Shown in pieces: positions 41,060 to 63,780 of a stretch of DNA of 64,000 nucleotides (positions are counted from its first letter, which is position 1; each line of letters begins with the position of its first letter). A program made the position numbers and the translations under genes. The stretch is from a virus (taxonomy: Duplodnaviria > Caudoviricetes), in the IMG/VR virus record IMGVR_UViG_3300031994_000058, positions 22,688 to 86,687 of that record; one strand, given 5' to 3'. Below the pieces are notes generated by a model, which worked only from the letters and a program-made list of their open reading frames with translations, searched no databases and was not told where the DNA came from.

Positions 41060-41195
41060 GAGGTGTTTGCTTCCTTGTTGCTTTTTATGGATGTTCGCGG
41101 ATTTACGTTACTAGTCCATACCCATTTAAGCAAAATTTTCACCAAGTGGTGTGCGAAAGGCCGCGCCGAGTAGAATATAAAAAGTGCAAACAAGT

Positions 41196-41337: not shown

Positions 41338-41421
41338 GACTGCGCGACCAGTCCCATTTTGATTAAATTTCTGACCAGATTTGGGTGTTCTGTTTAAAAT
41401 TGTTACGATTGATTTATCCGT

Positions 41422-41437
41422 GGGGGAAGTATCCCCC
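41422..41437. other. GC-rich hairpin just 3' of the VR gene (probable DGR target-recognition hairpin)
   Basis: GGGGGA-AGTA-TCCCCC, 10 nt past the target stop codon. Confidence 0.6.
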
Positions 41438-41446
41438 TTCACCCCC

Positions 41447-42883
41447 TCAAATGGGTAATTTCTGGAGACGAGCGCCGATGCTACCGCCCGAGTCCGAAGA
41501 ACCGTTATTGCCGCCCAGATAGAACATACCATAGCCCCGGTACTGGCCGTAGTTACCGCCAACGCAGAGAACCACACCAGACGAATCATAGTAACAGTAA
41601 TCGGCGATGTAAGTAGAATAACTCGAGTCTGATACGATAGAAGACGGATATAATGCCCATTCGTAGTCGGTGGCTGTCGGAACGCCGAAAGCACTGATAC
41701 AGCCAGACGAGGTGTATCTTGTACCAGTGTTAGTACCACCAGAAGAATCGGAATACGTAGAGGGGTTAAGATAAGTGTAAATCGAAGAAGATGAAAATCT
41801 AATACCATCACACCAATCGAGGACATTATCCCAGATACCCTCGATATACCGGTATTGGGTTGAAGCGGCATAAGTCGTTCTGGAAGAAGCCATTGTACCA
41901 GTATGGTAGGGCATAGAGTCAGTATAACCCATCGTTACGACGGACGAGCCATTACCACATCCATAGCCTATTACTTTCTGAGAATCCCAATCGGCGAATT
42001 CCACAATGTAAAGCATCCGGATGGTCCAGAACATAGCAAAATCAAATTGCCAATAGTCAGATCCCAGGTTATGAATGCTGGTTCTTGCGGTGGATCTTGT
42101 GATGGAAACCTTAGGCGAAGAACCGGATGTGGACTTATAGTTAGTCGAAGAACAATGGTACCGTCCTACATACACATAATCCCGTTCTCCAACACCATCA
42201 CCTCTGTCCATATGGGCAGGAGAGACAGAAAAGCCTTCAACGGGGCCATTTGCGATCTGAAACGTCATGGCAGAACCGGTTTTCGTGATTTTATACCAGA
42301 ATTTAGGAATCTCAACGAGTTCGTTTCCATCTAGAGTCACTCTTCGTATTCCAGACCAAGGCATAACATCGTCGAAGGGCGAATATCCGGGATGATTGTT
42401 GTCATTAACATATGGGTCTGGATTAGAGAAAGACGCAGCATCGTCTGTTCTGGTCATAGTGGTAGTGGAAGAACCATCCCAAAATACGCCAAAGGTCTGA
42501 GTAAATGCAAGACTTGTTGTGTATGTCGTATAATCATCTACCACAACAGTCTTTGTGACGCTATCACCATCCAGTTCCATCGTACATGTCCACGTGCCGA
42601 GGTTGACAAGATAGGTTTTCGGGGTTCCGTCGGATGTGTACGTGTGGGTGGTGGTGCCATCTGTCAGAGTCACTTCGCCACCTTCAACTGCTGTTACAGC
42701 GAGCTTAGCGAAGGCGAGACTAACGGACTGCGTGGTGTTGGTTGTGGTGGTCTCGATGTATTTCGTTTCAGAGGTCGCACCTTGGAGAGAGGCATTGACC
42801 TGATAGAGACCAGGGTCATCGATATGGAGAACCGCATTGCCGGAAGAGTCGGCAGTGGCGGTGTATATTTTTGGTAGACTCAT
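41447..42883 (-). CDS. DGR target: tail fibre/receptor-binding protein with C-terminal C-type-lectin-like VR domain
   Basis: IEGIWDNVLDWCDG...VGGNYG...IGARL; carries VR1 at the extreme C-terminus. Confidence 0.9.
   Translation of the reverse strand: MSLPKIYTATADSSGNAVLHIDDPGLYQVNASLQGATSETKYIETTTTNTTQSVSLAFAKLAVTAVEGGEVTLTDGTTTHTYTSDGTPKTYLVNLGTWTCTMELDGDSVTKTVVVDDYTTYTTSLAFTQTFGVFWDGSSTTTMTRTDDAASFSNPDPYVNDNNHPGYSPFDDVMPWSGIRRVTLDGNELVEIPKFWYKITKTGSAMTFQIANGPVEGFSVSPAHMDRGDGVGERDYVYVGRYHCSSTNYKSTSGSSPKVSITRSTARTSIHNLGSDYWQFDFAMFWTIRMLYIVEFADWDSQKVIGYGCGNGSSVVTMGYTDSMPYHTGTMASSRTTYAASTQYRYIEGIWDNVLDWCDGIRFSSSSIYTYLNPSTYSDSSGGTNTGTRYTSSGCISAFGVPTATDYEWALYPSSIVSDSSYSTYIADYCYYDSSGVVLCVGGNYGQYRGYGMFYLGGNNGSSDSGGSIGARLQKLPI
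41466..41607 (-). repeat. DGR variable repeat (VR1)
   Basis: 16 mismatches to TR, all at TR A (13 A>G, 3 A>T on the coding strand), no indels. Confidence 0.95.
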
Positions 42884-48441: not shown

Positions 48442-50310
48442 TTAGCCCTGAGCCGGAACATACTCAAGCACGAGTGCGGACTTCGGCTTAACAAGGCAAC
48501 CAGAGCAACGAGTCTCCATCAGGTACTTCATCTGGTTGTAATCGATGTCGAAGTCATCAAAGGTATTGATCTCGCCACCCTTATCAGCGCCGACAACGTA
48601 GTCTGCCGGGTTTACAATGATACCAGCCAGAGTGCGAGTTACAGCAGAAGCGCCCTCACCAGTGGTTCTGGTAATGCCTGCCATGGGCTCAACAGTAACG
48701 ATCTTAGAAACGAGCAGTGCGGTTGCAAGCTCATCCTTAGTTCTGTAGAGTCTTCGGCCGATACCATCCTCAACGAGCAGCAGATCTGCCAGAGTATCCT
48801 CAGTAGTATAGAATGTCGGATTACCAGAACCCTTATAGTTCTTGCGTGCCTTGATTGCAGCCTTAACGAGAGCCTTGGCCTTAGCCTCCTCATCGTCATC
48901 GGCAGCAACCTCAACGTCGACCTTTACGGAGAACAGGTCGTCATCAGTGTAGATCGGACGAATGCAATCCTCGTTGATCTTGTCGTCTGCCTGGGTTACC
49001 GGATCACGACCATCACCCAGCAGAAATGCACGAGCGAGTTCCTCATTCAGCATGACTCTCATCTCACGGCGAACGTATGCTACTACATCGAAATCAGTTA
49101 CATCAATGATGTCATCACGATCGAACTTCTGCTTCTTGTAAACGGTGGTCGGAACGGTGATTCTCTTCAGGAGCTTGAATACTTCTTCGAGCTTCTTCTT
49201 ACCCTTCACGTAACCTCTTGCACGAGCCTCCTCGGCAGTAATGTCTGCAAAGATAGTCTTAATACGAGCGAACGGGCTACGCTTAACCGAATTCAGGAAC
49301 GCAGATACCCACTCCATATCTCTGGAGATAAGCTCGGGCTCCTTAGTCCAATTCTTAGCATCCGGGAACAGCCAGTCGATGTCCTTGATACCATAGGCGT
49401 CTGCATGAGCAAGAATAGTATCCTTCAGGCTCTGCTGCTTCTTGGAAGCCTCTGCAAAAATTGCGGAGGTCTCTGCTCTCAGTTCCTCGCCGTGCTTTAC
49501 AGCATTCTCATCAGAGGACTGAATGCCGGTGTAGGTTGCGGAATTGTCAAATACGTTGTGCTTCATTTCTTTTTCATCCTCCTTGGATTCGTTCGTTGCT
49601 TCGTTGTTAGATTTGTTATTACGCTTCATAGCCTCGCCGACCATAAAGTATACAACCATTTTCTGCTTCTCGGACATTGCGTCAAAGACATCCTTGATGG
49701 TTTCCTCGTCATTGTCAGCATGCTCGAGTTCGTCATCTTCGGTGTTCTCGGTCTCAGTCTCGGTTTCGGTTTCCTCAGGCTCTTCATCCTCATCTTCATT
49801 AGAAAGGAAGCAGCTACCATCGGCAGCGTGACACAGGAAATACGGAGTCTCGAAGTCGATGACCTCGTCATTGTATACGAATCCCTGCTCGCCATATGCT
49901 TCGCTACCATCAGAATGTGTGATGATGTTGTCGATATACGCGCCAGGATTTGCGCCATGCATTACAAGGCTTACCTCACGAATTACACCATGAACAACAT
50001 CAGGGCCATTCTGGGTAAGCTGATTAGCATAGATAGAAAGCGCATCAAGATCACCATGCTTAACCGCTTCTAGAGCAGCCTTGCCATTCTCGGAGTCATT
50101 GAGTGCGCAGTAAGCATATACGCCCTCTGCACGATTCTCAAGAAGTGCATGGCCGATTACGGATGCGGGAGAAGAATGATCATGCTGCCACATAAGCGGA
50201 ACAACATCGCAATCATTGTCCTTGAACGCATCGCGCTTAATTACGCGACCATCTGTGCACTTGAGATTGTTTCTAGTGGCCCAGCCACTAAAATCAAATC
50301 TTTCTGCCAT
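48442..50310 (-). CDS. Prohead protease fused to major capsid protein (HK97 fold)
   Basis: Start MAERFD; PLMWQHDH...IREVSLVMHGANPGA protease; acidic linker; FDDFDIDYNQMKYLMETRCSG capsid end. Confidence 0.92.
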   Translation of the reverse strand: MAERFDFSGWATRNNLKCTDGRVIKRDAFKDNDCDVVPLMWQHDHSSPASVIGHALLENRAEGVYAYCALNDSENGKAALEAVKHGDLDALSIYANQLTQNGPDVVHGVIREVSLVMHGANPGAYIDNIITHSDGSEAYGEQGFVYNDEVIDFETPYFLCHAADGSCFLSNEDEDEEPEETETETETENTEDDELEHADNDEETIKDVFDAMSEKQKMVVYFMVGEAMKRNNKSNNEATNESKEDEKEMKHNVFDNSATYTGIQSSDENAVKHGEELRAETSAIFAEASKKQQSLKDTILAHADAYGIKDIDWLFPDAKNWTKEPELISRDMEWVSAFLNSVKRSPFARIKTIFADITAEEARARGYVKGKKKLEEVFKLLKRITVPTTVYKKQKFDRDDIIDVTDFDVVAYVRREMRVMLNEELARAFLLGDGRDPVTQADDKINEDCIRPIYTDDDLFSVKVDVEVAADDDEEAKAKALVKAAIKARKNYKGSGNPTFYTTEDTLADLLLVEDGIGRRLYRTKDELATALLVSKIVTVEPMAGITRTTGEGASAVTRTLAGIIVNPADYVVGADKGGEINTFDDFDIDYNQMKYLMETRCSGCLVKPKSALVLEYVPAQG

Positions 50311-51577
50311 TTTGAATTTCCTCCTTGTTAGATAGTATATCGGAATAAGAATCATCAACAACTGGCGAATTATTTATTGGATTGCCATTATCGTCTGTCG
50401 CTTGGTTTAGATTCTTGTTTCTAAGTTCGTTTGCGGCCGGATCATCAACCGGTTTGTAGCCAACGATTGCTCTAACCTCATTAGAACTGAGAATCTCATT
50501 TCTAGTGAATTTATCAGCAATGTCAGCAACCTTCTCGACAGGAACGAGCTTAAACGGATCTCTAAAGAACCAGATTGATTCTCTTTGAGTAATAGCAGTT
50601 CTTGATAAAAACTTTCGTTTAAATTCGTCTGCGATTGCCGCGAGAATGGGCTCGACGGTTCGGCTATAGTAGTTTAGTAATTCCTGCTCTGATGCACTGC
50701 CATCAAGAATGGCTTGTGTGATGCCAAGCTGTGCATAAAGATCAGTCCGTAGATCCTGAACCTGTGTAGAAAGCTGATTTTCTACAGGTCTATTAAGCTG
50801 AATTACCTGCTCTGTACCATCCGTATAAGCAATGCCATATTCAGAACTCGTAAGCTGGGTCTCAATGTCTTTTCGACGTTGTTCCGCTTGTTGACGCCGA
50901 ACTTCGCCTTTAACGATATAGGGAAGCTGAATGATAAGATCGAGCTTGCGTCCGCTGTTTCTTTCATCCAGCATATCGATTAGATTGAGCTTTCGCATGA
51001 GTCTTTTTGCCGTTGAGTTAGGTTCATTCATGATTGAATAGAACGGATTCTCAATAATAGCAATGGTTCGCTTAGGACAAATGATCTCCTTATGCAGTCC
51101 ATCTCGTTCATCATACAAACGAACACGAACTCTGTCAGGATACCATTCCATAATCTTACCGACTCTCATTGACAAGATGTCATAAGATTCGGTAACATCT
51201 GGGTTTTTATCCGTTTCGGTTGGTACAACAGCTACTACTCCTTCATCAAACATCGATAGAACAAGGTCAAGAACGAATGCTCGACCAGTCTGATCGATAT
51301 TTGCTTCAACGGTCATACATCGATTGAGCTTGTCTTCAATAGTTGTGACGTATTTACCATTAGCGTCGAGCTTTGCATGGAGTAGATTAATCTGGGCGAC
51401 ATCATTCGCAATTCGATTGTAAATTGCGTTGACGATTGAACGCTCATTTCCTCTACTCAGCACGGCTTTATCGGGTCTTGATCCATATGACGCATAGAAA
51501 GGATACTGTTTTTCTTTCGTCGGATCTCGCCCGATAAAGGCGTTCCAACCATTTTGAAATCTTGTAAATAATGACAT
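50294..51577 (-). CDS. Portal protein
   Basis: IYNRIANDVA, LDLIIQLPY, GIAYTDGTE, EILSSNEVRAIVG; between TerL and capsid. Confidence 0.9.
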   Translation of the reverse strand: MSLFTRFQNGWNAFIGRDPTKEKQYPFYASYGSRPDKAVLSRGNERSIVNAIYNRIANDVAQINLLHAKLDANGKYVTTIEDKLNRCMTVEANIDQTGRAFVLDLVLSMFDEGVVAVVPTETDKNPDVTESYDILSMRVGKIMEWYPDRVRVRLYDERDGLHKEIICPKRTIAIIENPFYSIMNEPNSTAKRLMRKLNLIDMLDERNSGRKLDLIIQLPYIVKGEVRRQQAEQRRKDIETQLTSSEYGIAYTDGTEQVIQLNRPVENQLSTQVQDLRTDLYAQLGITQAILDGSASEQELLNYYSRTVEPILAAIADEFKRKFLSRTAITQRESIWFFRDPFKLVPVEKVADIADKFTRNEILSSNEVRAIVGYKPVDDPAANELRNKNLNQATDDNGNPINNSPVVDDSYSDILSNKEEIQNGRKI

Positions 51578-51592: not shown

Positions 51593-52306
51593 TTAGGATT
51601 GAAAAGCGAAGTGTTTTACAATAGGACTGATCTCTCGTTTCTGCTTAATGTCCTTCAAATCTTCAATAGACTTCGTTGCATATCCGAAATTATCAAAAAC
51701 ATCAGATTCGACAATCTTGTCCATTAATGAGTCATCCATCTTGACACGATCATCGGCAATAAGCTGCGCAAGATTGAAAGCATCATTTTCATTAAGAAGA
51801 ATTCTGTTTCGATTCTTCTCGCTGAGTTTGGTGTTTATCTCAGACAAGACTAGCGAAGCGAGAACTCGACTTTCGAGTGTTGGTATAAATGACACAACAG
51901 GCATCATAAGCTTTGTGGCCTTAAGATAGTCATCGGCTCTTTTTTGTCGATTATGCTCCTCAGATAAAGCTCGTACATAAGCCTTTCCAGAATCAACACT
52001 CTTTACGATTCGTTCCAGACCCTTCTCGCCATATTTATTGACAAGATCTTTGTACGTTTGCTCGTCATCAAATCGGGATCGAAGTTCGGTCAATCGCTCT
52101 ACTTTTTTCAAAGTCTTCTTCTGGGATCTTGTAAGCTCTCCGTGAATCTCATCTTTTACTCGACGTTTGCCGGGATGTCTAGGTTCTCCAGAATATCCAT
52201 AATGTTCTCTTCCTTCAGGAGTGAGGGAGCCATCTTTGTTCTGATAACGACGTTCTCCCCACTTCTGTCCGAGGATGCCATGATGCATAAGAAAATCTTC
52301 TGTCAT
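51593..52306 (-). CDS. HHG..WG-leader protein
   Basis: LMHHGILGQKWGERRYQNKDGSLTPEGR. Confidence 0.8.
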   Translation of the reverse strand: MTEDFLMHHGILGQKWGERRYQNKDGSLTPEGREHYGYSGEPRHPGKRRVKDEIHGELTRSQKKTLKKVERLTELRSRFDDEQTYKDLVNKYGEKGLERIVKSVDSGKAYVRALSEEHNRQKRADDYLKATKLMMPVVSFIPTLESRVLASLVLSEINTKLSEKNRNRILLNENDAFNLAQLIADDRVKMDDSLMDKIVESDVFDNFGYATKSIEDLKDIKQKREISPIVKHFAFQS

Positions 52307-52313
52307 ACCAGTA

Positions 52314-52991
52314 TCACCCCACTCCGAAGAAATCTTTGACGAATTGAACACCTTGAGAAACTGCAGGTTTAATCTTCTTAGAATTAGCTTTCATAGAAGA
52401 CGCCGTATACTCAACATATCCGTCAATGAACTTTCGAGCCTTCTTCGCGGCTGACACGTTCTGTTCCGCTTTAGATGCTGCTAAAGAATCCAGATAGGGC
52501 TTCTTTCTTTTGTACGTATCAGCACGTTTTTTAGCAGCTTCGAGTTTGGCTTTTTCATTTGCTACATAATCGACATTCGCGATATTGTAATTGACTCTGC
52601 CATAACGTTTTCTGGCTGCATCAAGTTTAGCTTTTTCGTTTTCGGCGTAGGCATTTGCAGTATTTCCTTGGACACCGCGTCGATGCTTTTCCGCTGAAGA
52701 TGTCCATTTCCAAACGCCTTTATTCTCGTCATATGAGAAGCCAGCGGCGTTCCATTCTCGCTCTTCTTTATCGTTCTTCGGGTACACACCTTGAGGGAGG
52801 TAGGTATAAGAGCCAGATTTTTGTGCATCTTTTACATACTCTTTAAGACTGTCAGGTATCGTGTTTCCTGTAGTAACGTTCTTCCACCGCTCTTTATTTT
52901 CCCGATAGTATTTTGCATTATACTCTTTCTCGCGTTTCTTCTGTTCTGGAGATTTTCCCCAAGAATGTGCGAGTTCTTCCAAAAAATCCAT
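52314..52991 (-). CDS. HSWGK-leader protein
   Basis: LAHSWGKSPEQKKREKEYNAKYY; paralog of 61136..61705. Confidence 0.8.
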   Translation of the reverse strand: MDFLEELAHSWGKSPEQKKREKEYNAKYYRENKERWKNVTTGNTIPDSLKEYVKDAQKSGSYTYLPQGVYPKNDKEEREWNAAGFSYDENKGVWKWTSSAEKHRRGVQGNTANAYAENEKAKLDAARKRYGRVNYNIANVDYVANEKAKLEAAKKRADTYKRKKPYLDSLAASKAEQNVSAAKKARKFIDGYVEYTASSMKANSKKIKPAVSQGVQFVKDFFGVG

Positions 52992-53005
52992 AATTTCACC
53001 TGCCT

Positions 53006-54751
53006 TTAATAGAACAAATCCTTGTTGTTTTTCCAAGCGACATAAGCATCCATCATGGCGGACACATTATCGATTTTTTGGTCGCTTCGTTTCTTCAGAA
53101 GTTTGCGATTTCCATTTGTGTCTTCAAGTGTGATACAGTTACCCATACAAAACTTCATAATCTCTTGGTCGAATCTAAGCATTCGATCTTCCGATAGAAT
53201 CTTAAGTTCTCCAAGGGGCACTGTTTCTGTTCGTGCACCCTGTGCCACTTTCTCGACACCAAACGGTGTATTTTCCGTAGACCAACGTGTAATGAATTCT
53301 TTTGCGTTGTATGGGTCATAACCCACAGACACAACATCATAAGAGTTTGCCTGTATATACGCATCGAGTTCATCATATACTTGATTCATGTCTAAAACGG
53401 AGCCGTCCATAATAATAAGACTGCCTTCATTTATGAACATCTCATACGTCGATCGCATCGCAAGCGGAAGATTGCACAACGTTCTCTCTGTAATGTAACT
53501 CCTCGCTTTTACGCCGAAAGAACCATCGCGTAATGGAAAGAGAAATGTGAATGCACAGAAGTCATCACCTTGAGACAGGTCACATCCCATCGAGCAAGCC
53601 ATGGACCAGTAGTCTCGATGCTCGTGCGGTATGGTTTCGTCATAGGTAAAGTAATACGTATAGCCTTCCATAGGAATGCCAAAACGCTTTGCCAGAATAT
53701 CATTTCTGGTTGCAGGAGCTTTCTCAGCACGTTCTTTATCGAGCTGATATGTCTCGTAACTAACTGTCTTACCAAGATTCGGATTTGCTTTAATCCACAT
53801 ATTAGGATCCGCAACTTCCTTAATGTCATCGAGTCGATACCACCAAATAGAAATGTGAGGGTTGATGTAATCGCCCTTCAGAATGTCCATCAATTCCATT
53901 TTGATTGTATCACCACTGCCGTTTCTGACTGTACCTTCGGATGAAATCGCGACAATGAGATAATCGTCAAGTTTTGACGCGCCCTGCTCGATTGCACCAA
54001 CAACATCCTCTCGTACGTCTCCAGAAAGCCACTCGTCGATCGTTGCGATTTTACAACGGAGACCCTGTAGCTTATCTACAGACATCGGTCGAATTTCCAA
54101 TAGACTTGATGTCAAGAAATTCTCAATACCCTTTTTTGTCGCCGATAATTTACACCGATTCATCTTAGAGCCTGTGGTGTTTTGAATCGAACCCTCTGTT
54201 AAAAATTTGAATAGTGGTCCTCGTGCTCTTGCGATGGATGTACGTATCGGCGACATAACCTCTTCCGCCTGATGCATTGTTGGGGCGGTTGTTACCTGAT
54301 GTGTGGTGAACGGATCTATGTTCAGAAAATAATTCTGAATGCAAGATGCATACATAGACTTCGCCGCGCCTCGAGCTACGATAAGATACTGTTTGTTGGT
54401 GAGCCGCTTTTTAATACGCTTCATTTCGTAATGACCGCCGTACCCATCCTTATCAGGGACGAATACTGAGCGATCAACGAAGTAATACCAACCAAATATC
54501 TGTTCTGCCCATAGCTTAAAACTATCGAGCAGGTGTAGCTCGGTACCATCAGTAAGGGTAAGCTCATTTTCACAATAGGCAATAAACCCATTGATAGCTT
54601 CGTCATCATAGTAGATGTTTGGGTTCGCAATGAGATCGTCAATGCGATTCATCTCCATTGAGATCTCTTGATTTACTGGTATTTTTCTTTGCAAAACTGC
54701 TTCTCGAAATTGCCCGTAATAGATTGGAACCGCAGTATTTGATAAACTCAT
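53006..54751 (-). CDS. terL: Terminase large subunit
   Basis: Walker A-like LIVARGAAKS, Walker B ATIDEW, nuclease GCDLSQGDDF, KIDNVSAMMDA. Confidence 0.95.
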   Translation of the reverse strand: MSLSNTAVPIYYGQFREAVLQRKIPVNQEISMEMNRIDDLIANPNIYYDDEAINGFIAYCENELTLTDGTELHLLDSFKLWAEQIFGWYYFVDRSVFVPDKDGYGGHYEMKRIKKRLTNKQYLIVARGAAKSMYASCIQNYFLNIDPFTTHQVTTAPTMHQAEEVMSPIRTSIARARGPLFKFLTEGSIQNTTGSKMNRCKLSATKKGIENFLTSSLLEIRPMSVDKLQGLRCKIATIDEWLSGDVREDVVGAIEQGASKLDDYLIVAISSEGTVRNGSGDTIKMELMDILKGDYINPHISIWWYRLDDIKEVADPNMWIKANPNLGKTVSYETYQLDKERAEKAPATRNDILAKRFGIPMEGYTYYFTYDETIPHEHRDYWSMACSMGCDLSQGDDFCAFTFLFPLRDGSFGVKARSYITERTLCNLPLAMRSTYEMFINEGSLIIMDGSVLDMNQVYDELDAYIQANSYDVVSVGYDPYNAKEFITRWSTENTPFGVEKVAQGARTETVPLGELKILSEDRMLRFDQEIMKFCMGNCITLEDTNGNRKLLKKRSDQKIDNVSAMMDAYVAWKNNKDLFY

Positions 54752-54775
54752 TACTAATTGCTTCTTTCTTTTTTA

Positions 54776-55864
54776 TTACGACTTGGTTTTATTGTACAGT
54801 TCCTCTATCTGATCGTCCTCTAGATCATATCCTTCACAAAGTTTCTTAAACTCTTTAAGACTAAGATTCTTTGTCTTCTGGACCTTAAGCCTGTTATCGG
54901 GATCGATAACGCCAAGAGGCATGCCATCACTAAGAAGCTTTTCCATCATAAGATCTACTGGGTTTGCATCAACGCCGGCTCGAGTATTCTTTATGTGCAG
55001 CTTCTTAGCTTTAGCGGCTCGTTCTTCAGGAGTTGTGAATGTACCGACAGCTTCATTCGTAACAGCTCCGATTTGCTCATATGCCTTCCAACCAGCAAGA
55101 GCCAGACCGCCAACGCCAGCAACGATTTTGGTAGCAGTGCCAAGATTTTCGATGATCTGTTCTGTTTTGGTCTTACCATCTTTTTCGGATTTCTGAGCAG
55201 CGGTCTTCTTGTCAGGGTCTATTTTGCTCAAAGTATCAATTCTGGAGAAAGCACTCTTAAGCTCTTCATCGGTAAACAGGTGCCTATTATCATAAATTTC
55301 TTTTGGATCCGCCTTGGCAAGTATCGCAGCTTTCTTCTTTTCCTTAGCACTCTCTTTGACTCCAAACAATCTATCCATAAGAGATTTCTTTTCAGCCGGG
55401 GCTTCCTGTACAGGCTGCGCGCCCTGTTTGTTCTGATTGCCTTGAACCGTCTGCCGATTTTGCATAGGAGGATTGATCTTCTCAATCTTATCGATGCGCT
55501 TTATCGCTTCGTCAAGCTCGTCATTTGTAAACAGTTGTCGATTATTATAAACCCCATTTCTGTCACCAGTTTCGATGAGCCTTTTCTTAGTCGCTTCGAT
55601 TTCATCCGCCTGTGCTTTTTTCTTAAGCTCGATTTTCTTAAGCTTCTTTGCTTTCTTTAAAGCCAATCTTTCAGCTCTCTCTTCTTTTGTTTCCAATCGA
55701 AAAGATTTGCGTTTCTCTCTAGGAGGACCGATTCCCCAATGACGGCGTCCTTCAGGAGTTAAGGAACCATCTTTATTCTGGTATCTACGCTCTCCCCACT
55801 TCATGCCGAGGGTTCCGTAGTGCTTAAGGAACGTTGTATCAAGCTTTTGATTCTCTGTCTCCAT
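54776..55864 (-). CDS. HHG..WG-leader protein with internal repeat
   Basis: LKHYGTLGMKWGERRYQNKDGSLTPEGR; repeats RQLFTNDELDEAIKRI / RHLFTDEELKSAFSRI. Confidence 0.8.
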   Translation of the reverse strand: METENQKLDTTFLKHYGTLGMKWGERRYQNKDGSLTPEGRRHWGIGPPREKRKSFRLETKEERAERLALKKAKKLKKIELKKKAQADEIEATKKRLIETGDRNGVYNNRQLFTNDELDEAIKRIDKIEKINPPMQNRQTVQGNQNKQGAQPVQEAPAEKKSLMDRLFGVKESAKEKKKAAILAKADPKEIYDNRHLFTDEELKSAFSRIDTLSKIDPDKKTAAQKSEKDGKTKTEQIIENLGTATKIVAGVGGLALAGWKAYEQIGAVTNEAVGTFTTPEERAAKAKKLHIKNTRAGVDANPVDLMMEKLLSDGMPLGVIDPDNRLKVQKTKNLSLKEFKKLCEGYDLEDDQIEELYNKTKS

Positions 55865-56267
55865 TCATCTTCACCTCCTCTTTGGAGTCCGTGCTACCAT
55901 TTTGAATTTCTTCGTTCATACTGTTTAAAGCCTTATCCACAAATTTTGGAATAGGAACTCCTAATTTTTTAAGATTCTCACAGATACTTACGATTTCCAT
56001 AAGAATGATGTATAAAGAGAATGCTGACAGAATATAGAATGGAAAGTTCATTCCCGCGGTAAAAAGCTGGCCAATGAACAAAATCATTATTTCTCCAAAT
56101 TTTCTGCCGAGGCCCTCTCTCATTTTATAAGACTTAAGATGCCCACTTGCCCATGCATGGATCACGCCTGTTAGTACATCAATACCCATTAAAGTTACAG
56201 GAATAAGCATGATCCAACCACCATCATGAAAACTTACATCTACGAAAATGTTAGTGATCTCGTTCAT
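55839..56267 (-). CDS. Holin (toxin secretion/phage lysis family 4)
   Basis: IDVLTGVIHAW...KSYKMREGLGRK...MEIVSICENLKKLGVPIP. Confidence 0.9.
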   Translation of the reverse strand: MNEITNIFVDVSFHDGGWIMLIPVTLMGIDVLTGVIHAWASGHLKSYKMREGLGRKFGEIMILFIGQLFTAGMNFPFYILSAFSLYIILMEIVSICENLKKLGVPIPKFVDKALNSMNEEIQNGSTDSKEEVKMNGDRESKA

Positions 56268-56338
56268 TGGTCCTCTCCTTATAAGAAGTATAAGAGCCCG
56301 CCCCGATTATTACCGAGACAGGCTCTTACAATCATTGC

Positions 56339-56896
56339 TTATTCGCCTTTCATGGAATCGATAACTCGAATGAACTGATTAAGTCTATCACGCTCGTAGT
56401 TAGACTGAGCGCTGTCCATCATCTGTTCGATCTTATCGATTACTCTATCCTCAATACTATGGCCACTCATACCGCTATCATAAGCGAACGAACCATGCAT
56501 ACGACGGCCGGACGTTCTCATGTCATCATGGTAATCATCATGACCGTATGAATATCTTCGACCATCTCGACTGACGTATCTGCCAGTTGCTGCGTCTCGA
56601 CCACGGGCATAAGAATGCATCCTTCCAGAATATCCGTCATACATCATGGGTTCATCCCATCCATAAGAATACTCATGATTAGGATAATACATCCGAGGCA
56701 TACCTTCAGAAGTTTCATACTTATACTCTGCTTTTCCGCCGCGCATTACATCGTCGATCTTCTCAATAAGGCATACCGCATTCTTAGCATTCTCAATCTC
56801 CACAGGAGAAAGAGAAGGCTTGGAAGCAACAAGCTGCTCAATATCTTTTTCGACATGCTCACGGAGATTCATGAGTGTCTTGTTCTCCATTTCCAT
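56339..56896 (-). CDS. Accessory-module protein with Tyr/Gly/Arg low-complexity region
   Basis: YSGR/YSYG repeats, ARGRDAATGRYVSRD. Confidence 0.7.
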   Translation of the reverse strand: MEMENKTLMNLREHVEKDIEQLVASKPSLSPVEIENAKNAVCLIEKIDDVMRGGKAEYKYETSEGMPRMYYPNHEYSYGWDEPMMYDGYSGRMHSYARGRDAATGRYVSRDGRRYSYGHDDYHDDMRTSGRRMHGSFAYDSGMSGHSIEDRVIDKIEQMMDSAQSNYERDRLNQFIRVIDSMKGE

Positions 56897-56913
56897 TTTG
56901 AATTCCTCCTGTG

Positions 56914-57399
56914 TTAATATGTTACGGCGAGATCGGGTCTACCGAAAATGATGTTGGGATTCTGAACAAGAATCGGAATGTCGCTAGTGTTTCTAACAGA
57001 AACCGTTTCACAACAACCATTCCATACATCAACATTGATCTCTCTGCTAACATTGAAGAATTCCTCGACTGCTGCAGGGGTGACGATCATTGTGCTTGCC
57101 GGAACAGTAGCCCCATCGACGGTAATTGCGAGAGAAATCTCACCGACTGTCTCGCCGGTCGGAACTGCGATGTTCGCCCCAAAGTTTACCCGATAATTGG
57201 CACTATTAATTCTTCTACAACAGCACCGATTTCGGTTAAGGCATCTTGGAATCCATCCAGAAAGAAGAAAATTTCCAGTTCCACTACGCCAACGAACAAG
57301 ACCTCTTTCGCAAGGGCTAGGGGCAAGTGTGAAAACCACAGTCTCACCAGGTGGTACTGTCTGCAACGTGTTATTGGTGTATTCAGCCATTGCTGTCAC
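56914..57399 (-). CDS. Cys-rich beta-sandwich accessory protein
   Basis: QTVPPGETVVF...YRVNFGANIA...GCCETVSVRN. Confidence 0.7.
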   Translation of the reverse strand: MTAMAEYTNNTLQTVPPGETVVFTLAPSPCERGLVRWRSGTGNFLLSGWIPRCLNRNRCCCRRINSANYRVNFGANIAVPTGETVGEISLAITVDGATVPASTMIVTPAAVEEFFNVSREINVDVWNGCCETVSVRNTSDIPILVQNPNIIFGRPDLAVTY

Positions 57400-57405
57400 C
57401 TCCTA

Positions 57406-58323
57406 TCACGCGTTGCAACCGCAGCCGTTGTAGAAATTCTGATTAGCACAGCAGTTGGGATTCTGAACAACATATGCTGGAATGGGAGACGGATTCAGAT
57501 ACTGCTCGAGCGCCTGAGTCTGAGCCTGATTGTCAGCCAGGATAGCAGCACGGTTAGCCAGGCCCTCAGCGCGAATATTCTGTGCGGTGATCTGGTTCTG
57601 CAGAGCATTGTTCTGAGCCTTGAGTGCCTCGATCTCCTGCTGACACAGCTTATCCTGAATGCTCTGGATGCCATTGTTGATGGTATTAAGCAGCATCTGA
57701 GTGTTTGCGGTATTGTTCGTGATGATGTCGCGAGTGTTGTTAGCAGCCTCATAGCGATCCTGGCAATGCTCCTGAGCATTCGCATACTTAGAATCCAGAA
57801 CTGCCGCACGATTCTCGCAGCAACAATTCTGCTGTGCCATAGAAATCGTATTGAGCTGGTTAGAAAGACCGGTCTGAAGATTAAACATCTGATTCATGTT
57901 AGCCATCTGGCGAGCATTATCGGATGCTTCGGCTGCGGAGAAACCAGAATTTACAGCAGCCGTGACACCGTTAAAGCCGTTGCACAGAGCCTGATTTACA
58001 CCGGCAAAGCCAGAGCACATGCCCTGATTCACACCAGCGAAACCGTTAGTTACAGCACCAGTAAGGCCATTGATTCCAGACATAACTGCCTGCTGATCAA
58101 AGCCTCTCTGTACATCGTTATTAGTGGTGTTGTTCATGATGTACGGCATAGCACCGTTACCATATCCGCCACCCCAGCCATTGCCGTTGAAAGCAAACAG
58201 GAACAGAACCAGCAGCCACCATGCTCCGTCGCCGCCAAATCCGTTTCCGAAGCCACCTCCATTATTATAGCCAGTGGGAGTTACAAGCATTGTCGTGTTT
58301 GTTCCGTTTTCTGCAAGACTCAT
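57406..58323 (-). CDS. Gly/Asn/Gln-rich protein with 11-aa repeats and Cys clusters
   Basis: TM WWLLVLFLFAF; GFAGVNQGMCS-type repeats; QQNCCCENR; NPNCC. Confidence 0.8.
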   Translation of the reverse strand: MSLAENGTNTTMLVTPTGYNNGGGFGNGFGGDGAWWLLVLFLFAFNGNGWGGGYGNGAMPYIMNNTTNNDVQRGFDQQAVMSGINGLTGAVTNGFAGVNQGMCSGFAGVNQALCNGFNGVTAAVNSGFSAAEASDNARQMANMNQMFNLQTGLSNQLNTISMAQQNCCCENRAAVLDSKYANAQEHCQDRYEAANNTRDIITNNTANTQMLLNTINNGIQSIQDKLCQQEIEALKAQNNALQNQITAQNIRAEGLANRAAILADNQAQTQALEQYLNPSPIPAYVVQNPNCCANQNFYNGCGCNA

Positions 58324-58409
58324 AGTAAAGCCCTCCTTGAATTAATTAGTAGATTGTAGTAGTGTAATTGTTAATGCAATATCCAAAACCTGCGCAGGTT
58401 TTTAGAACG

Positions 58410-59282
58410 TTATTTAATATCTCCATAAATCATCGCTTTGACTGTGGCTATTGGTATATCCAATATTGAGCCCATCTTGCTATCCAAGTAAGACAGATTA
58501 CTAGTGTCAAAGATGATTACTGGATTTTCTCGTTTGAAATTTGTACCATAGTGAGAATCATTAGTATCGATGGCTGCGCCATAACCTTGACGCTTGAGTT
58601 CTTTAAAGAATCTGGCTCGCTGCCTTTGAAGGTCTGGATCTTCATTCGGAATCGTGTAATTGAAAAACCTGTAAATCTTATACAAATCTTCAGAAGATAC
58701 ATTTTGATTCTTTCGTTTTCGAACTTTTTCAAGCGTTTTTATTGATTCCTTATACGCCGGATTTTCCTTATGATTGTCAGGCATCAAAGATTCCATTCTT
58801 TTTGGATCTGTTACAAAGTTCCAAAAATCTTTAGACTTTTCGACGCATTTCGTAAAAGCTTCAACAGATGCTTTTTCATCGGCCACTTTAATGTCTTTAT
58901 TCGCCTTATTTCGAATTTTGTATAACATATGGAACGCGGGACCAATGCGCTTTCCATTCTCGTCTACCTCGTCATTTTTTATGACCTTTTGAAACATCGC
59001 ATTATAAAAATTCTTATCACGATCTGTAAGCGCTGCGTAATAAAAATCGGAATCTCTTGTTCGATCTTTATCCTTAGACAAAGTCTGTGCGACACTCCCA
59101 CGTTTTATGATCGTCGGCGAACTTTTAGCCTCGTAATCGACTCGTTTCACTCTATGGCCTTTTAATGGATACGGCGGGCCATTACGCACGCCCCACTCTT
59201 GGCCTTTAATTCCGTGATGAGCTAAGAAATCAGTGTACAATTCTATTACCCCTCCTCCCCGATTTTTATTTAGCATTCTCAT
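58410..59282 (-). CDS. HHG..WG-leader protein, possible ADP-ribosyltransferase-like C-terminus (true start likely slightly inside)
   Basis: LAHHGIKGQEWGVRNGPPYPL; LKRQGYGAAIDTND...PVIIFD. Confidence 0.7.
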   Translation of the reverse strand: MRMLNKNRGGGVIELYTDFLAHHGIKGQEWGVRNGPPYPLKGHRVKRVDYEAKSSPTIIKRGSVAQTLSKDKDRTRDSDFYYAALTDRDKNFYNAMFQKVIKNDEVDENGKRIGPAFHMLYKIRNKANKDIKVADEKASVEAFTKCVEKSKDFWNFVTDPKRMESLMPDNHKENPAYKESIKTLEKVRKRKNQNVSSEDLYKIYRFFNYTIPNEDPDLQRQRARFFKELKRQGYGAAIDTNDSHYGTNFKRENPVIIFDTSNLSYLDSKMGSILDIPIATVKAMIYGDIK

Positions 59283-59343
59283 TTTTTTTCTGGTTATATC
59301 TATAATACTATTTCTCAGCCGTTTTCTACGTAAGGCTCTTACC

Positions 59344-60003
59344 CTAAGAATGCTGGAGAGAATCTAAGTAAACGGTGTTAAACATTTCTCTTCTAAAGCC
59401 CCACTCATCATTTAGAGCTTTATAGTTATTGCTAAGAGTTGCAATAGGATGATTCAACCGGGCTTTCATATATTCACTGTGCATATATTTGTCGACAGCT
59501 TTAGCGGTTTTCTTATAATTTTTGTATACGTCTTTGCACTTCTGTTTGACCAACTTATCAAAATTGGGAGACTTGCCGCCATTAAGTTCATCAGCATATT
59601 CTGGCGCATCATAGCGACGTTCAAACACGTCTTTATAGAATTTTTCACGAGCCTTCGGATTAGAATGATCATAATCTTTGTTTGTATAGATTTGATCCAT
59701 CAGTTTCATCCCGTGTTCTTTGATTTCTTTAGCGGTGAGTTTTCGATGACTTTTTTCGTATTCTTTCTTTACTGCTTTATACTTTTTATCGTATTCGCGG
59801 CTGGCGTCAAAGGCTGCATCTTGCTTTTGCTTATACTTCTTAACCGACGACTTACTAAGATTAAGAAAATGCTTCCTGCCCATCGGTGTGAGGGAGCCGT
59901 CCTTATTCTGATATCGTCTTACACCCCACTTTTGTCCGAGAACACCATGATGATAGAGCTCGTCATCATTCCCGGTCAAAATATCTTGAAGAAAATCTGT
60001 CAT
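59344..60003 (-). CDS. HHG..WG-leader protein
   Basis: LYHHGVLGQKWGVRRYQNKDGSLTPMGR. Confidence 0.8.
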   Translation of the reverse strand: MTDFLQDILTGNDDELYHHGVLGQKWGVRRYQNKDGSLTPMGRKHFLNLSKSSVKKYKQKQDAAFDASREYDKKYKAVKKEYEKSHRKLTAKEIKEHGMKLMDQIYTNKDYDHSNPKAREKFYKDVFERRYDAPEYADELNGGKSPNFDKLVKQKCKDVYKNYKKTAKAVDKYMHSEYMKARLNHPIATLSNNYKALNDEWGFRREMFNTVYLDSLQHS

Positions 60004-60006
60004 CGC

Positions 60007-60228
60007 TTATCCTTTCCCCATAAGGTGATTCGCCATTTGAGCAACGGCGTTGAACTGCTCCTGAGAGATTTCGCCATTTTGAATTTTCTGCTGAATAATC
60101 TGCTGTGGGCTCATCTGAGCAGAAGCATTAAACTGCTGCTGAAAATTATTAAACTGGTTTACAAAATTATTGAAACCACCAAGCTGACTGAATAATGGAT
60201 TCTGCGGATTAAAGTTAAAGCCGTTCAT
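60007..60228 (-). CDS. Small Gln/Asn-rich protein
   Basis: NNFVNQFNNFQQQF...PQQIIQQKIQNGEISQEQFN. Confidence 0.75.
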   Translation of the reverse strand: MNGFNFNPQNPLFSQLGGFNNFVNQFNNFQQQFNASAQMSPQQIIQQKIQNGEISQEQFNAVAQMANHLMGKG

Positions 60229-60234
60229 ATACTA

Positions 60235-60729
60235 TCACCCCTTAAGTTCGTTGTAAAGCGCTTCAAACTTTGCTTTCAGATCATCAAACTCCGCCTTCGG
60301 AACTGTAGATTCTTGCGATGTCTGATACTTCTCAGTTTGCGACGGTTGCATCATAGGATTTGGAGTCGTCTCTGTCAGACTCCATGTGCGTGGACTTAAA
60401 TCAATTCCATATACGTCTTTTGCTTTCAAGCAAAGTTCATGTTCAGAGAAGTTAAACAGGGCGATCGTTTGTCCAGCCATTGGTGTATAATAGTTGTAAT
60501 CCGACTTATTATTCACCATGTAACAAACTGTGATGCCTCTTTGCTCTGTGGCAAAAGGAACCGGTTGAAGTTGCGTTGTTGGTTGTGGATTAATCCAATT
60601 ACTATAGTTTGGTTGCACCTGTTGTATTTGCTGCTGTTGAGTTGTTTGCGTAGGCATTGGTTGTGTCCGTGTTGTACTTTGCATAGGCTGAGTTCCAGCA
60701 TTCGTATAATTTGCGAGCACTATTACCAC
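60235..60729 (-). CDS. Gln-rich accessory protein
   Basis: Q/P/T-rich N-terminus, then YTPMAGQTIALF...LKAKDVYG. Confidence 0.7.
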   Translation of the reverse strand: MVIVLANYTNAGTQPMQSTTRTQPMPTQTTQQQQIQQVQPNYSNWINPQPTTQLQPVPFATEQRGITVCYMVNNKSDYNYYTPMAGQTIALFNFSEHELCLKAKDVYGIDLSPRTWSLTETTPNPMMQPSQTEKYQTSQESTVPKAEFDDLKAKFEALYNELKG

Positions 60730-61100
60730 TCCTTTCTGTAATAGTAAATCGGCGATTTATCTCCAGAATCAAACGTGTCATAATAATCACCATTCACAAC
60801 GGCTATTACATGACCGGAGGTTTTAAGAAGATATGAACCAATCGGATGATCATCACAAAAATCTCTAACTGTATAGCAATCAGGACATGTATCCGGTATC
60901 AAATATCTTCTATAACCTCGCATCGATAGGAATTTACCCCACATCTTATCAGAAGAAGGCATGTCATAATTTTCCCGACAAATATCTGTTACGCTGTCAA
61001 ATGCTTCTAACCATGTAAGACCTTCGAGTCTACAAATGGCCCTTATTGTACAGTCTGTGACATGTTTTCCTTTGGGGTTCGGATTATAGTAGATAAACAT
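60723..61100 (-). CDS. Possible papain-like (Cys-His-Asp) small peptidase
   Basis: DCTIRA...GHVIAV..GDYYDTFDSG. Confidence 0.5.
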   Translation of the reverse strand: MFIYYNPNPKGKHVTDCTIRAICRLEGLTWLEAFDSVTDICRENYDMPSSDKMWGKFLSMRGYRRYLIPDTCPDCYTVRDFCDDHPIGSYLLKTSGHVIAVVNGDYYDTFDSGDKSPIYYYRKEW

Positions 61101-61135
61101 TTTGAATTAACCATAAAAATTTGATCTATAAGACT

Positions 61136-61705
61136 TTACTTAAGCGGAATAAAACTCGGTGTCGCGTAAAGAATCTCTTTCGGCGTTCTATTCTTATTCA
61201 TTCTTGCTATCTCATCGATTGCATGCTGGTTTGAAACGCGGGCACTTCGGACGGCTTTCTTGTATGGCTTATAGTACTTCTCGGCTTTTTTGACGGTTTT
61301 CTGCATAGAGAGTGAGTCTAGGAAATCTTTCGCGGCTTTAAAAAGTTTACCGTTTCTAAAGTTTACCAAAGCAGACATCTTAGTTGCTTTAACGTCGTCC
61401 ATTACGTCTTTTGTAGCCACTTCATATGTCCAAACTGTATTATTTAAAGCCCTCTGTTGCTCTTCGAGAAGATACTGTGCGCGTGACAATTCCTCCTTAC
61501 GAACATTTCCAGGATCAACCGAGTCTCCCTTTTCGACTCCTGCACCGCCATTCGTGACATACTTCTCTCTGGCTTTTGGGCGATTGTCCTGCCACTTCTC
61601 TTTGTGCTTCTTGTAGTATTCGGCGTTATACTCAGATTCACGTTTTTTTTGTTCTGGAGACTTCCCCCAAGAATGACTGAGTTCTGCCAGAAAATCTTGT
61701 TTCAT
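61136..61705 (-). CDS. HSWGK-leader protein
   Basis: LSHSWGKSPEQKKRESEYNAEYY. Confidence 0.8.
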   Translation of the reverse strand: MKQDFLAELSHSWGKSPEQKKRESEYNAEYYKKHKEKWQDNRPKAREKYVTNGGAGVEKGDSVDPGNVRKEELSRAQYLLEEQQRALNNTVWTYEVATKDVMDDVKATKMSALVNFRNGKLFKAAKDFLDSLSMQKTVKKAEKYYKPYKKAVRSARVSNQHAIDEIARMNKNRTPKEILYATPSFIPLK

Positions 61706-61716
61706 GTGTAAGCTCC

Positions 61717-62076
61717 TTATAATTTAGTGATTCCGGGATCTACTTCGACATTAAGTCGCCACTCAAGTTCCTTGATTGCTTCTTTCATCTTCTCATTTGC
61801 AATGGAGCTTGCTGGCGGATCGAAGATAAGCTTTACTTGCATGTAAATATATGATCGAACTTGCGGGAGCCTATTTGCAGGATAGTCGTCGCCAAGAAAG
61901 TCGTGCCACGTTTGTGTCTCGTCTGTTAGAATGAATTCAGGAGTTCCAACGCCCATCTGAACAAGATTCGCAAGATATGTGTTGGCATGAATCATGATGT
62001 CTTGGTCGAAATAATTGTAATCTGTGGCGGCTCCGCCAAGAAGTTTTCGCAAACTTGCTAAGATGGATTCGTCCAT
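61717..62076 (-). CDS. Head-tail connector (gp6-like)
   Basis: SILASLRKLLG...FDQDIMIHAN...LVQMGVG...VKLIFDPPASS...ELEWRL. Confidence 0.7.
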   Translation of the reverse strand: MDESILASLRKLLGGAATDYNYFDQDIMIHANTYLANLVQMGVGTPEFILTDETQTWHDFLGDDYPANRLPQVRSYIYMQVKLIFDPPASSIANEKMKEAIKELEWRLNVEVDPGITKL

Positions 62077-62089
62077 TTACTTGCCTCCT

Positions 62090-62389
62090 TTATTTTTTAC
62101 CATAAAGGTATCTATTACCAACGTCTCTTAAATGATGACCGCTTCTGTCATGAAGTCTATTTCTATTAGTTAGGCTCTCCACTACACCTTCATAGATCCA
62201 ACCCTCACCGATTATCGCTTTGGCCTTATAGAATTTGCGATCTGTCCAGTCATATGTGACATTAGATTCGTCGATCTCAATGACTTCGCCATTTTGAATT
62301 TCACCAACGACATCTTCTGAAATTTGAGTAATCCATGGAGCTCGTCTCAGAGATGCTTTCTTACAATTGGCGATTTTTACTTTAGTCAT
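62090..62389 (-). CDS. SH3-like domain protein
   Basis: IANCKKASLRRAP...VVGEI..GE...EGWI. Confidence 0.55.
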   Translation of the reverse strand: MTKVKIANCKKASLRRAPWITQISEDVVGEIQNGEVIEIDESNVTYDWTDRKFYKAKAIIGEGWIYEGVVESLTNRNRLHDRSGHHLRDVGNRYLYGKK

Positions 62390-62398
62390 AAGACGATA

Positions 62399-62812
62399 TC
62401 ACCTCCAGGGAATTGTATCATTTGGTGTTCTATCCGCAGGTCTTCGAGATTTAACTAGATCCATGTTTCCATAGTGAATCATCTGATGCGTGTCAAATGA
62501 AACACAGACAACGTTGTTTGGATCGAATACACAAATGTCTCGATTAAGGATGTTCTCAATTGTGATTGGGTTTAGGTGATGGATGTAAAGACCCTTATTT
62601 ATTGGGTAGTCTGGATGAGCTAAGTCACAGCCATGATCTCGAACGACTATTTCTCGCCTAAACTTCTGCCATTCATAGGAATGATAGAGCGTTTGGTTTA
62701 GATGCCTATGTGAACCAAATGTTGCAGATCCTGGTTGACCGTTTAGAAACAGATACTCCAAGCGCTCATCGAATGTCGGCAGCGATATAAGCTCTTGGTA
62801 GGTTCGGATCAT
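62399..62812 (-). CDS. HNH endonuclease (packaging-associated)
   Basis: EWQKFRREIVVRDHGCDL...IHHLNP...NVVCVSFDTHQMIH. Confidence 0.88.
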   Translation of the reverse strand: MIRTYQELISLPTFDERLEYLFLNGQPGSATFGSHRHLNQTLYHSYEWQKFRREIVVRDHGCDLAHPDYPINKGLYIHHLNPITIENILNRDICVFDPNNVVCVSFDTHQMIHYGNMDLVKSRRPADRTPNDTIPWR

Positions 62813-62832
62813 TTTGACAACATCCTTTCGGT

Positions 62833-63441
62833 TTATTCAAGCCACTTTTCATAATTCACAAATGTACCTAATTCAGGATCAGTAAATCTTTCAAATTCTT
62901 TAAACCCCATCTTTTCAGCAAGGCGTCGAGAACCTTTATTTTCTTCAAGAGCTGACCAAAGAATTGGCTTATCCCAATCCAAAGAACTTTTATTCTTTTC
63001 AATCCACTCGATTCCTCGCTTTGCGGCTTTTGTAGCGTAACCTTTTCCTCGATTTTCTTTTCCACCCCTGATTCCAAGTGAAACGTTGTATACCTCGTTA
63101 TACTCGTCAATATTAAAAAACGACATCGGAATACTTCCTGATTTAATAATTGTCGAATGAACCAACCTTGTGGCATCTCTATAATCATCGGTTCCTTTAT
63201 ACCCGTGTTCATATCCCAACAAACGAAGATCATCTTTGCTCATGGAATTGATTATACTTTCGAGTGATGGATCAACTCTATGGGTTCTAGAAACGTTACC
63301 GTATCGTTTCCGCCCCTCATCAGTCAAAGAGCCGTCGGTGTTTTGGTATCGTCTTACACCCCACTTTTGGCCTTTAATTCCATGGTGTGAGAGCGAGGTG
63401 TTCGAGTTTTGTGTGAGTTCTATTAGAAAATCGTGTTTCAT
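62833..63441 (-). CDS. HHG..WG-leader protein fused to a GNAT acetyltransferase
   Basis: LSHHGIKGQKWGVRRYQN; ENRGKGYATKAA (acetyl-CoA motif A)...ENKGSRRLAEKMGF. Confidence 0.85.
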   Translation of the reverse strand: MKHDFLIELTQNSNTSLSHHGIKGQKWGVRRYQNTDGSLTDEGRKRYGNVSRTHRVDPSLESIINSMSKDDLRLLGYEHGYKGTDDYRDATRLVHSTIIKSGSIPMSFFNIDEYNEVYNVSLGIRGGKENRGKGYATKAAKRGIEWIEKNKSSLDWDKPILWSALEENKGSRRLAEKMGFKEFERFTDPELGTFVNYEKWLE

Positions 63442-63444
63442 TAG

Positions 63445-63780
63445 TTACTCCTCATACTCTTCATAAGGTGTCTGACCTTGATATAATCGCATTGCGTTGA
63501 TAGCATCGCCATAAAGGGCCTCAACCCTCTTGGCGGATTCGATTGCTTCTGTCTTTGCTTCCAGATTTCGCATCTGCTTCTCCATCAATTCCTGTTCGAG
63601 CTGCGCCTTGGTTGTGCCGAGCTTCAGGTAATGACAGATTAGCTGATTTGACGCTGTTCCATCCAGTAATTTTTCTTCAGCCAAATCCATGGCCAAAGAA
63701 ATCAATTGATTCTCTCTTGCTTCAGGAGTCTTTGCTGGAGGGAGGCGTCTTTTAGCACCACTTTTGTTTGTGTTTGCCAT
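63445..63780 (-). CDS. Putative terminase small subunit
   Basis: First gene of the packaging block, helical, PAKTPEARENQLISLAMDLAE; assignment is positional. Confidence 0.5.
   Translation of the reverse strand: MANTNKSGAKRRLPPAKTPEARENQLISLAMDLAEEKLLDGTASNQLICHYLKLGTTKAQLEQELMEKQMRNLEAKTEAIESAKRVEALYGDAINAMRLYQGQTPYEEYEE

Follow-up and report, generated by a model that had tools for sequence, protein, structure and literature searches.

The first minutes of an infection (anti-defence, takeover) are decided by the proteins that a phage packs into its head and delivers with its DNA. To our knowledge, T4 and a few giant phages are the only ones for which the selection of such cargo is understood in detail. 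In T4, the internal proteins IPI-III and Alt carry a capsid-targeting sequence that the prohead protease gp21 cuts off at (L/I)-x-Glu. Short peptides likewise carry proteins into HK97-fold shells in the case of encapsulin cargo and of the HK97 protease gp4, where the loading or targeting peptide is C-terminal. Polymorphic toxins fused to MuF (SPP1 gp7) were reportedly described by Jamet et al. in 2017, and phage polyvalent proteins are said to have been described by Iyer et al. in the same year. Here we describe a set of genes in IMG/VR virus record IMGVR_UViG_3300031994_000058 (Duplodnaviria; Caudoviricetes) that share a peptide tag, most copies of which match Pfam family PF23847 (DUF7211), a family whose function is unassigned in Pfam. 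The stretch analysed, positions 22,688 to 86,687 of the record and hereafter called the window, forms the final 64 kb of a viral contig of 86,687 bases, which CheckV rates as complete. The phage is a siphovirus of 86.7 kb belonging to the "Lactococcus phage 1706 / actinophage" lineage, and the window is transcribed almost entirely from the minus strand.

The first-pass annotation of this DNA had claimed that seven genes among the packaging genes open with conserved leaders, and all seven are indeed present on the minus strand with the motifs described. They are interspersed with genes for an HNH endonuclease, a connector, the terminase large subunit (TerL), the portal and a fusion protein that joins protease, spacer and capsid. 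We consider it somewhat probable that the DUF7211 peptide serves to incorporate proteins into the head and that it contains a site at which the phage's own prohead protease cuts. Read in this way, the system would work like T4 targeting and the MuF and polyvalent systems, yet it appears to belong to neither family, its protease being of another type than gp21 and no MuF domain having been found in the tagged proteins. The seven genes, which carry tags of two types (A and B), and the fusion gene are as follows, in order of transcription:

62833-63441, minus strand: A5, 202 amino acids, tagged GNAT acetyltransferase; tag at 63322-63393; N-terminus MKH-D
61136-61705, minus strand: B2, 189 amino acids; type-B head at 61592-61696
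59344-60003, minus strand: A4, 219 amino acids, tagged, all-helical and basic; tag at 59887-59958; C-terminus LQH-S
58410-59282, minus strand: A3, 290 amino acids, tagged, with a phrog_7502 body; short tag at 59184-59225, lacking the RYQN extension
54776-55864, minus strand: A2, 362 amino acids, tagged; tag at 55757-55828; two repeats of about 30 amino acids and a Gly/Ala-rich hydrophobic helix
52314-52991, minus strand: B1, 225 amino acids; type-B head at 52884-52988 (DFLEELAHSWGKSPEQKKRE...), without a match to the DUF7211 hidden Markov model
51593-52306, minus strand: A1, 237 amino acids, tagged, directly upstream of the portal gene; tag core at 52220-52291 (LMHHGILGQKWGERRYQNKDGSLT); C-terminus VKH-FAFQS
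48442-50310, minus strand: fusion protein, 622 residues, comprising an S78 prohead protease, an acidic spacer and an HK97-type capsid protein

For A1 and B1 these coordinates reflect revised starts, most likely the ATG codons at 52306 (237 amino acids) and 52991 (225 amino acids), and the gene overlaps therefore vanish; the start of A3 may be a TTG at 59240.

Type A reads (D)FL-x-H-[HY]-G-x-x-G-[QM]-x-W-G-x-R and continues as RYQNxDGSLT in four of its five genes, while type B, found in two genes, reads DFL-x-E-L-x-H-S-W-G-K-S-P-E-Q-K-K-R-E... and extends over about 38 conserved residues. Only the DFL element, L-x-His and WG are common to both. A six-frame regular-expression scan of the 64 kb found both motifs nowhere outside these seven genes, and a search of the whole 86.7 kb genome with the DUF7211 model (25 positions; gathering score 27 bits) returned exactly the five type-A copies, at 28.7-34.4 bits. 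Scanned as whole proteins, three of the type-A products scored 30.6-31.5 bits and two 25.5-26.7. The five type-A tags thus match the Pfam model, whereas the two type-B heads do not: neither type-B protein (52314-53036 and 61136-61705) gave a DUF7211 match at E<=0.1. Type B is rare, with eight clusters among 5.8 billion proteins and one occurrence in 80 related loci, and its bodies are always divergent, lysine-rich and helical; we read the type-B proteins as a rare, lineage-specific version of the type-A device.

An AlphaFold model of A4, built on an alignment of 118 rows with deep coverage of the tag, places residues 10-31 in coil (predicted local distance difference test, pLDDT, 62-79) with one small beta-bridge, followed by a long helix with a pLDDT of about 94. 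As modelled, the tag of about 25 residues is a linear motif; it does not form the folded domain that the first-pass annotation had named as speaking against its own proposal. The word "leader" used in that annotation is too narrow, since the tag also occurs internally in multi-module proteins. A complex prediction that paired the protease-spacer-capsid precursor with a 42-residue tag returned a score of 0.00 and, having been run without controls, counts neither way.

The resemblance between the tag and the head genes lies in the spacer of the fusion protein. In an alignment of 83 fusion proteins (residue numbers are those of the window protein) this spacer is poorly conserved save for hydrophobic-x-His sites at residues 132 (83 of 83), 161 (69 of 83), 251 (71 of 83), 273 (80 of 83) and 302 (69 of 83); a sixth conserved site, 344, is found in 47 of 83 and has no counterpart in the window protein. 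In the window protein itself, all six spacer histidines (132, 161, 197, 251, 273 and 302; codons within 49405-49923) stand in a [LIVMF]-x-His context, and the sites recur in the homologues of phages 1706, ReqiPoco6 and FP_oengus, which are 33-45% identical. In the aligned spacers, 450 such tripeptides were seen against 97 expected from composition-preserving shuffles, figures that overstate independence in that the aligned homologues are related to one another. Histidine, which makes up 1.8% of the proteome, is entirely absent from the mature capsid domain (window 48442-49395, 317 residues). The residues ahead of the histidine are also similar: in the tag profile, position -2 is Leu in 92% of cases and positions -4 and -3 are Asp/Glu, and the spacer sites have L/I/M/V at -2 with acidic residues upstream.

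If hydrophobic-x-His is a cutting signal, proteins that survive in the prohead should avoid it, and for this reason we counted the tripeptide in the bodies of 115 single-tag proteins. In these 22,889 residues it occurred 21 times where 46.3 +/- 5.9 were expected, a count that 0 of 300 shuffles reached or undercut. Untagged open reading frames (ORFs) of the same loci contained it at 1.18-1.35 times expectation, and the reversed tripeptide in the bodies was found 50 times against 47 expected. In the window the motif does occur near protein termini, with VKH-FAFQS in A1 and LQH-S in A4 lying a few residues before the stop and A5 opening with MKH-D.

The reading we favour would join these observations as follows. 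The protease, which would lie inside the prohead because it is fused to the capsid protein, would cut after histidine, with a hydrophobic residue at P3 and His at P1. It would chop up the spacer, which must leave the capsid precursor, and the same cutting would separate tagged modules from one another and from short pre-peptides, so that intact basic proteins would stay in the head alongside the DNA. The Gly/Trp/Arg-rich core that follows the histidine (HG-x-x-G-M-K-W-G-V-R-R) would dock onto the prohead interior, and the tagged proteins would exit with the DNA at infection. We infer the cut after histidine, the docking through the core and the ejection alike.

The analogy to the T4 targeting sequence drawn by the first-pass annotation holds only as a functional likeness. 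Both are short N-terminal peptides on unrelated, often basic or enzymatic head cargo, the head location being putative here, and both involve a hydrophobic-x-X motif resembling scaffold-core cuts. The two share no sequence similarity, however, and the residue at the site is His here and Glu in T4. Where T4 has gp21, this phage has an HK97-type Peptidase_S78 that is fused to the capsid protein, and the motif shared between its spacer and the tags is [LIVM]-x-His. Two further points set the tag apart: its conserved core comes downstream of the putative cut, and within long proteins it also serves to join modules. Compared with the encapsulin and HK97 gp4 peptides, the tag is again a short linear peptide, yet it is N-terminal or internal rather than C-terminal and differs in sequence, and docking to the shell is putative here.

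Multi-tag proteins bear both on cleavage and on a different role for the tag. Among the best 150 matches to a tag profile, 145 have two to five tags, spaced 106-644 residues apart, which is about the length of single tagged proteins, and the first tag is N-terminal in 137 of the 150. Internal tags keep the hydrophobic -2 residue in 222 of 222 cases, and 130 of the 222 have a second x-His-[S/A/G/N/M] site no more than 40 residues upstream, giving junctions of the form ...L-x-His-Ser...(AFxIENGTLYL)-x-His-His-Gly. A scan of viral contigs for the multi-tag protein P0010 returned no match. Under translation table 11, four two-tag ORFs, including ORF7 of phage 1706, are uninterrupted, and the double-His junction is present in two of them. 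Proteins with two to five tag-module units occur in relatives, whereas the seven genes of the window are separate. The phage 1706 record (EU081845) labels its predictions "putative" and the rest "unknown", with a plain "structural protein" given only to orf6, 7, 11, 12, 13 and 17; ORF7, with its two tags, bears this label from the depositors. Its product has a predicted mass of 51 kDa and contains three L-x-His sites in addition to those of the tags. The labels reportedly stand for gel bands identified by mass spectrometry by Garneau et al. in 2008.

A structural label would also suit a tag that anchors minor structural proteins to the portal, the connector or the capsid wall, as permanent parts of the virion (plugs, head-completion or decoration proteins) that are neither cut nor ejected. 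Such an anchor would fit the position of the tagged genes beside portal, connector and TerL and the retention of a conserved core downstream of the putative cut, and internal tags of multi-module proteins would suit a repeated anchor. Tagged genes vary from one to seven per phage, however, and their bodies are unrelated, a pattern seldom seen in fixed structural parts; the GNAT enzyme and the toxin domains of relatives (Ntox50, deamidase) fit cargo better. An anchor also leaves unexplained why L-x-His is shared with the spacer and why the tripeptide is avoided in the bodies. On balance we regard the anchor as unlikely.

The tag and the fusion gene were found together whichever was taken as the starting point. 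Relatives of the fusion protein number 250 in IMG/VR, 80 of which (46-90% identity) were analysed, and 244 records among cultured phages, including Arthrobacter, Gordonia, Streptomyces and Rhodococcus (ReqiPoco6) phages, Lactococcus phage 1706 and Faecalibacterium phage FP_oengus. Starting from the fusion gene, one or more tags (mean 2.2, maximum 6) were present in 40 of the 41 loci that had 6 kb or more of upstream sequence. All 135 tags lay on the strand of the fusion gene, 132 of them upstream of the capsid gene and within 10 kb of it, and in 109 the tag histidine was no more than 20 residues from the first Met. Starting from the tag, a fusion homologue at 36-64% identity was present in 43 of 44 loci with enough downstream sequence. 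The number of tagged genes per phage ranged from 1 to 7, and their bodies were unrelated. With a profile of 47 tags, 52,494 cluster representatives were matched at E<=1e-3 and 22,697 at E<=1e-10.

A supercluster of Firmicutes and Actinobacteria phages with a conserved HNH-connector-TerL-portal-capsid protease block has already been described (preprint 10.1101/842583), and the capsid-protease fusion was noted by Klyczek et al. (PMC5513430). The tag goes unmentioned in both, and our literature search for DUF7211 and for the motif letters returned nothing relevant and no paper naming DUF7211. In ReqiPoco6, six consecutive genes between TerL and portal (gp018-gp023; L086:2475-6797) each open with FLAHYGVKGMKWG; the record annotates these genes as "similar at amino terminus", leaving the tag unnamed. 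Phage 1706 ORF7 and ReqiPoco6 gp018-gp023 stand in the same gene order as the window, with bodies unrelated to those of the window. FP_oengus has one tagged gene, AUV56562, in the slot that A1 occupies here. FP_oengus (MG711463) also encodes a "putative RNA polymerase" of 924 amino acids (L168:592-3366) that has a half-matching tag, DILEHYGTKRHSGRYPWGSG, at its start; no homologue of this protein was found in the genome from which the window comes.

This half-tag could equally be a shared regulatory or interaction motif, and it raises the alternative that the tag works inside the infected cell, independently of the particle, for example by binding a host factor or an assembly chaperone or by timing degradation, the likeness to the spacer being coincidental. 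The proteins of this phage are known from sequence and not from virions, and most tagged bodies have no known function, both of which would agree with a role in the cell. The strict placement of the tag in the late packaging and head module and the "structural" label of ORF7 argue against it, and it does not account for the conserved spacer histidines or for their depletion in the bodies. We hold this alternative to be decidedly unlikely.

The bodies behind the tags in the window are all basic (isoelectric point 8.9-9.7; Lys+Arg 16-21%), as are known internal head proteins such as T4 IPI-III. The GNAT domain that the first-pass annotation had named among the bodies was recovered by Pfam in A5 (62833-63441; PF13302, E=6.5e-10) and is the only known domain among the seven bodies. 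The repeats it had reported were also found, as two units of about 30 residues in A2 (54776-55864). These span residues ~103-132 and ~189-218 and follow Y-N/D-N-R-x-L-F-T-x-x-E-L-x-x-A-x-x-R-I-D-x-x-x-K-I; judged by eye, similar units are present in the multi-tag proteins P0009, P0010, P0012 and P0059, and the unit may be a second recurrent module of the cargo family. An "ART-like" assignment of A3 (58410-59282) drew no support from Pfam, PHROG or NCBIfam. Its sole lead was a weak one, ART-PolyVal on 35% of one atlas cluster with a score of 0.86, and we did not adopt the assignment; a single-sequence AlphaFold model of A3 was unusable (pLDDT 41.5). An NCBIfam scan of ten proteins gave no match.

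Among 118 tagged ORFs of relatives, 115 of which match DUF7211, about six have a known domain: GNAT, and one case each of Ntox50, Barstar, papain-fold glutamine deamidase, CW_7 and TraI-middle. Most of the remaining bodies are small, basic and helical. The presence of unrelated folds (GNAT, Ntox50, papain-fold deamidase, CW_7) runs counter to plain paralogy, in which an ancestral gene was duplicated and the N-terminus stayed alike by descent or gene conversion while the rest drifted, leaving a tag without function. Clustering of the genes, and the similar composition (basic, helical) of several bodies, are what paralogy would leave behind. The tag, however, is kept across phages of Firmicutes and Actinobacteria whose capsid genes are only 33-45% identical, and it is found in 52,494 clusters. 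Mean column identity outside the tag is about 6%. We judge paralogy very improbable.

Like the MuF toxins and polyvalent proteins, the tagged proteins combine a constant, here putative, head-packaging part with variable toxin or enzyme parts and are encoded beside the portal. Both groups include multi-module proteins that are presumably delivered with the DNA, and Ntox50 and the papain-fold deamidase are among the tagged bodies. The constant part of MuF proteins is, by contrast, a folded domain of 100-300 residues, and here it is a peptide of about 25; neither the window's seven proteins nor the 118 tagged ORFs of relatives gave a match to Phage_Mu_F (PF04233). The earlier description of the bodies as "diverse effectors" is borne out in part by the GNAT domain here and by a few toxin domains in relatives, and goes too far for most bodies, which have no known domain.

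The head-loading claim of the first-pass annotation accordingly draws indirect support from the co-occurrence of tag and fusion gene, the shared L-x-His, the avoidance of the tripeptide, the linear nature of the tag and the depositors' label for ORF7. Several points, besides the relatedness of the aligned spacers, weigh against head incorporation coupled to cleavage. Cleavage and virion location are predictions from sequence for the proteins of this phage. The two co-occurrence samples represent one broad lineage with conserved synteny, and shared ancestry could explain them. The residue after the histidine is Ser/Ala/Gly/Asn in the spacer and His/Tyr, then Gly, in the tags. The conserved core is C-terminal to the proposed cut; in T4 the entire targeting sequence is taken off. 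About 95% of the bodies have no recognisable function, and for most of them "effector" is an assumption. Lastly, the method behind the "structural protein" label of 1706 ORF7 is unverified.

Of the neighbouring genes named in the first-pass annotation, TerL, portal, connector and HNH are all confirmed, and a holin gene and the protease-capsid fusion gene accompany them. The remaining features of the region, in order of transcription, are:

63445-63780: homologue of phage 1706 orf4, first in the transcription order of the region
62399-62812, minus strand: HNH endonuclease of the packaging module (phrog_4321, E=3e-48)
between HNH and connector: ORF of 99 amino acids
61717-62076, minus strand: connector protein (PF24829, E=3e-28), homologous to the "structural protein" ORF6 of phage 1706
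between B2 and A4: three small ORFs
between A3 and holin: three ORFs without assigned function
55839-56267: holin (PF05105, E=8e-21)
53006-54751, minus strand: TerL (phrog_9, E=1.6e-107)
50294-51577, minus strand: portal (phrog_12, E=1.9e-44)

An untagged ORF of 125 amino acids at 60723-61100 was considered as a papain-like peptidase, that is, as a rival processing enzyme, and was set aside as it had no Pfam support. The holin gene lies within the packaging module, upstream of TerL, as it does in phage 1706 (orf3), and Arthrobacter AM/AU phages have a lysis gene ahead of the terminase, matching this placement. Elsewhere in the window, a complete diversity-generating retroelement lies among the tail genes (39986-42883, minus strand). 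It consists of a reverse transcriptase (39986-41059; PF00078), a template repeat (41196-41337) and a variable repeat (41466-41607) that corresponds to residues 426-473 of a 478-residue target protein (41447-42883); the two repeats differ at 16 positions, every one of which is an adenine in the template copy. Downstream of a Prophage_tail protein of 1135 amino acids, four consecutive tail-fibre-like proteins of 834, 258, 579 and 272 amino acids (19378-25253, minus strand) contain BspA-type leucine-rich repeats (PF13306).

A bolder form of the reading we favour is conceivable, and we would put it somewhat short of an even chance. In it, a single His-specific code, hydrophobic-x-His, would both dismantle the spacer and run a plug-in cargo system in a huge lineage of phages of Gram-positive hosts (1706-like phages, actinophage clusters and phages of gut Clostridia): any protein, or string of proteins, behind the DUF7211 unit of about 25 residues would be loaded, released by cleavage and delivered along with the DNA, and the site would have been eliminated from the capsid and the cargo bodies. 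This would make it a natural and engineerable platform for protein delivery with an unusual protease specificity.

Tens of thousands of protein clusters carry DUF7211, in phages that infect gut Clostridia, lactic acid bacteria and Actinobacteria, and the existence of cultured members (phage 1706, FP_oengus, ReqiPoco6 and many Arthrobacter, Gordonia and Streptomyces phages) makes the question directly testable. If this peptide does act as the signal for loading and processing, the cargo of a very large group of uncultured phages could be listed by a simple rule. It would also point to a prohead protease that unusually prefers histidine, and a small tag would be at hand with which foreign proteins could be packaged into phages of Gram-positive hosts.

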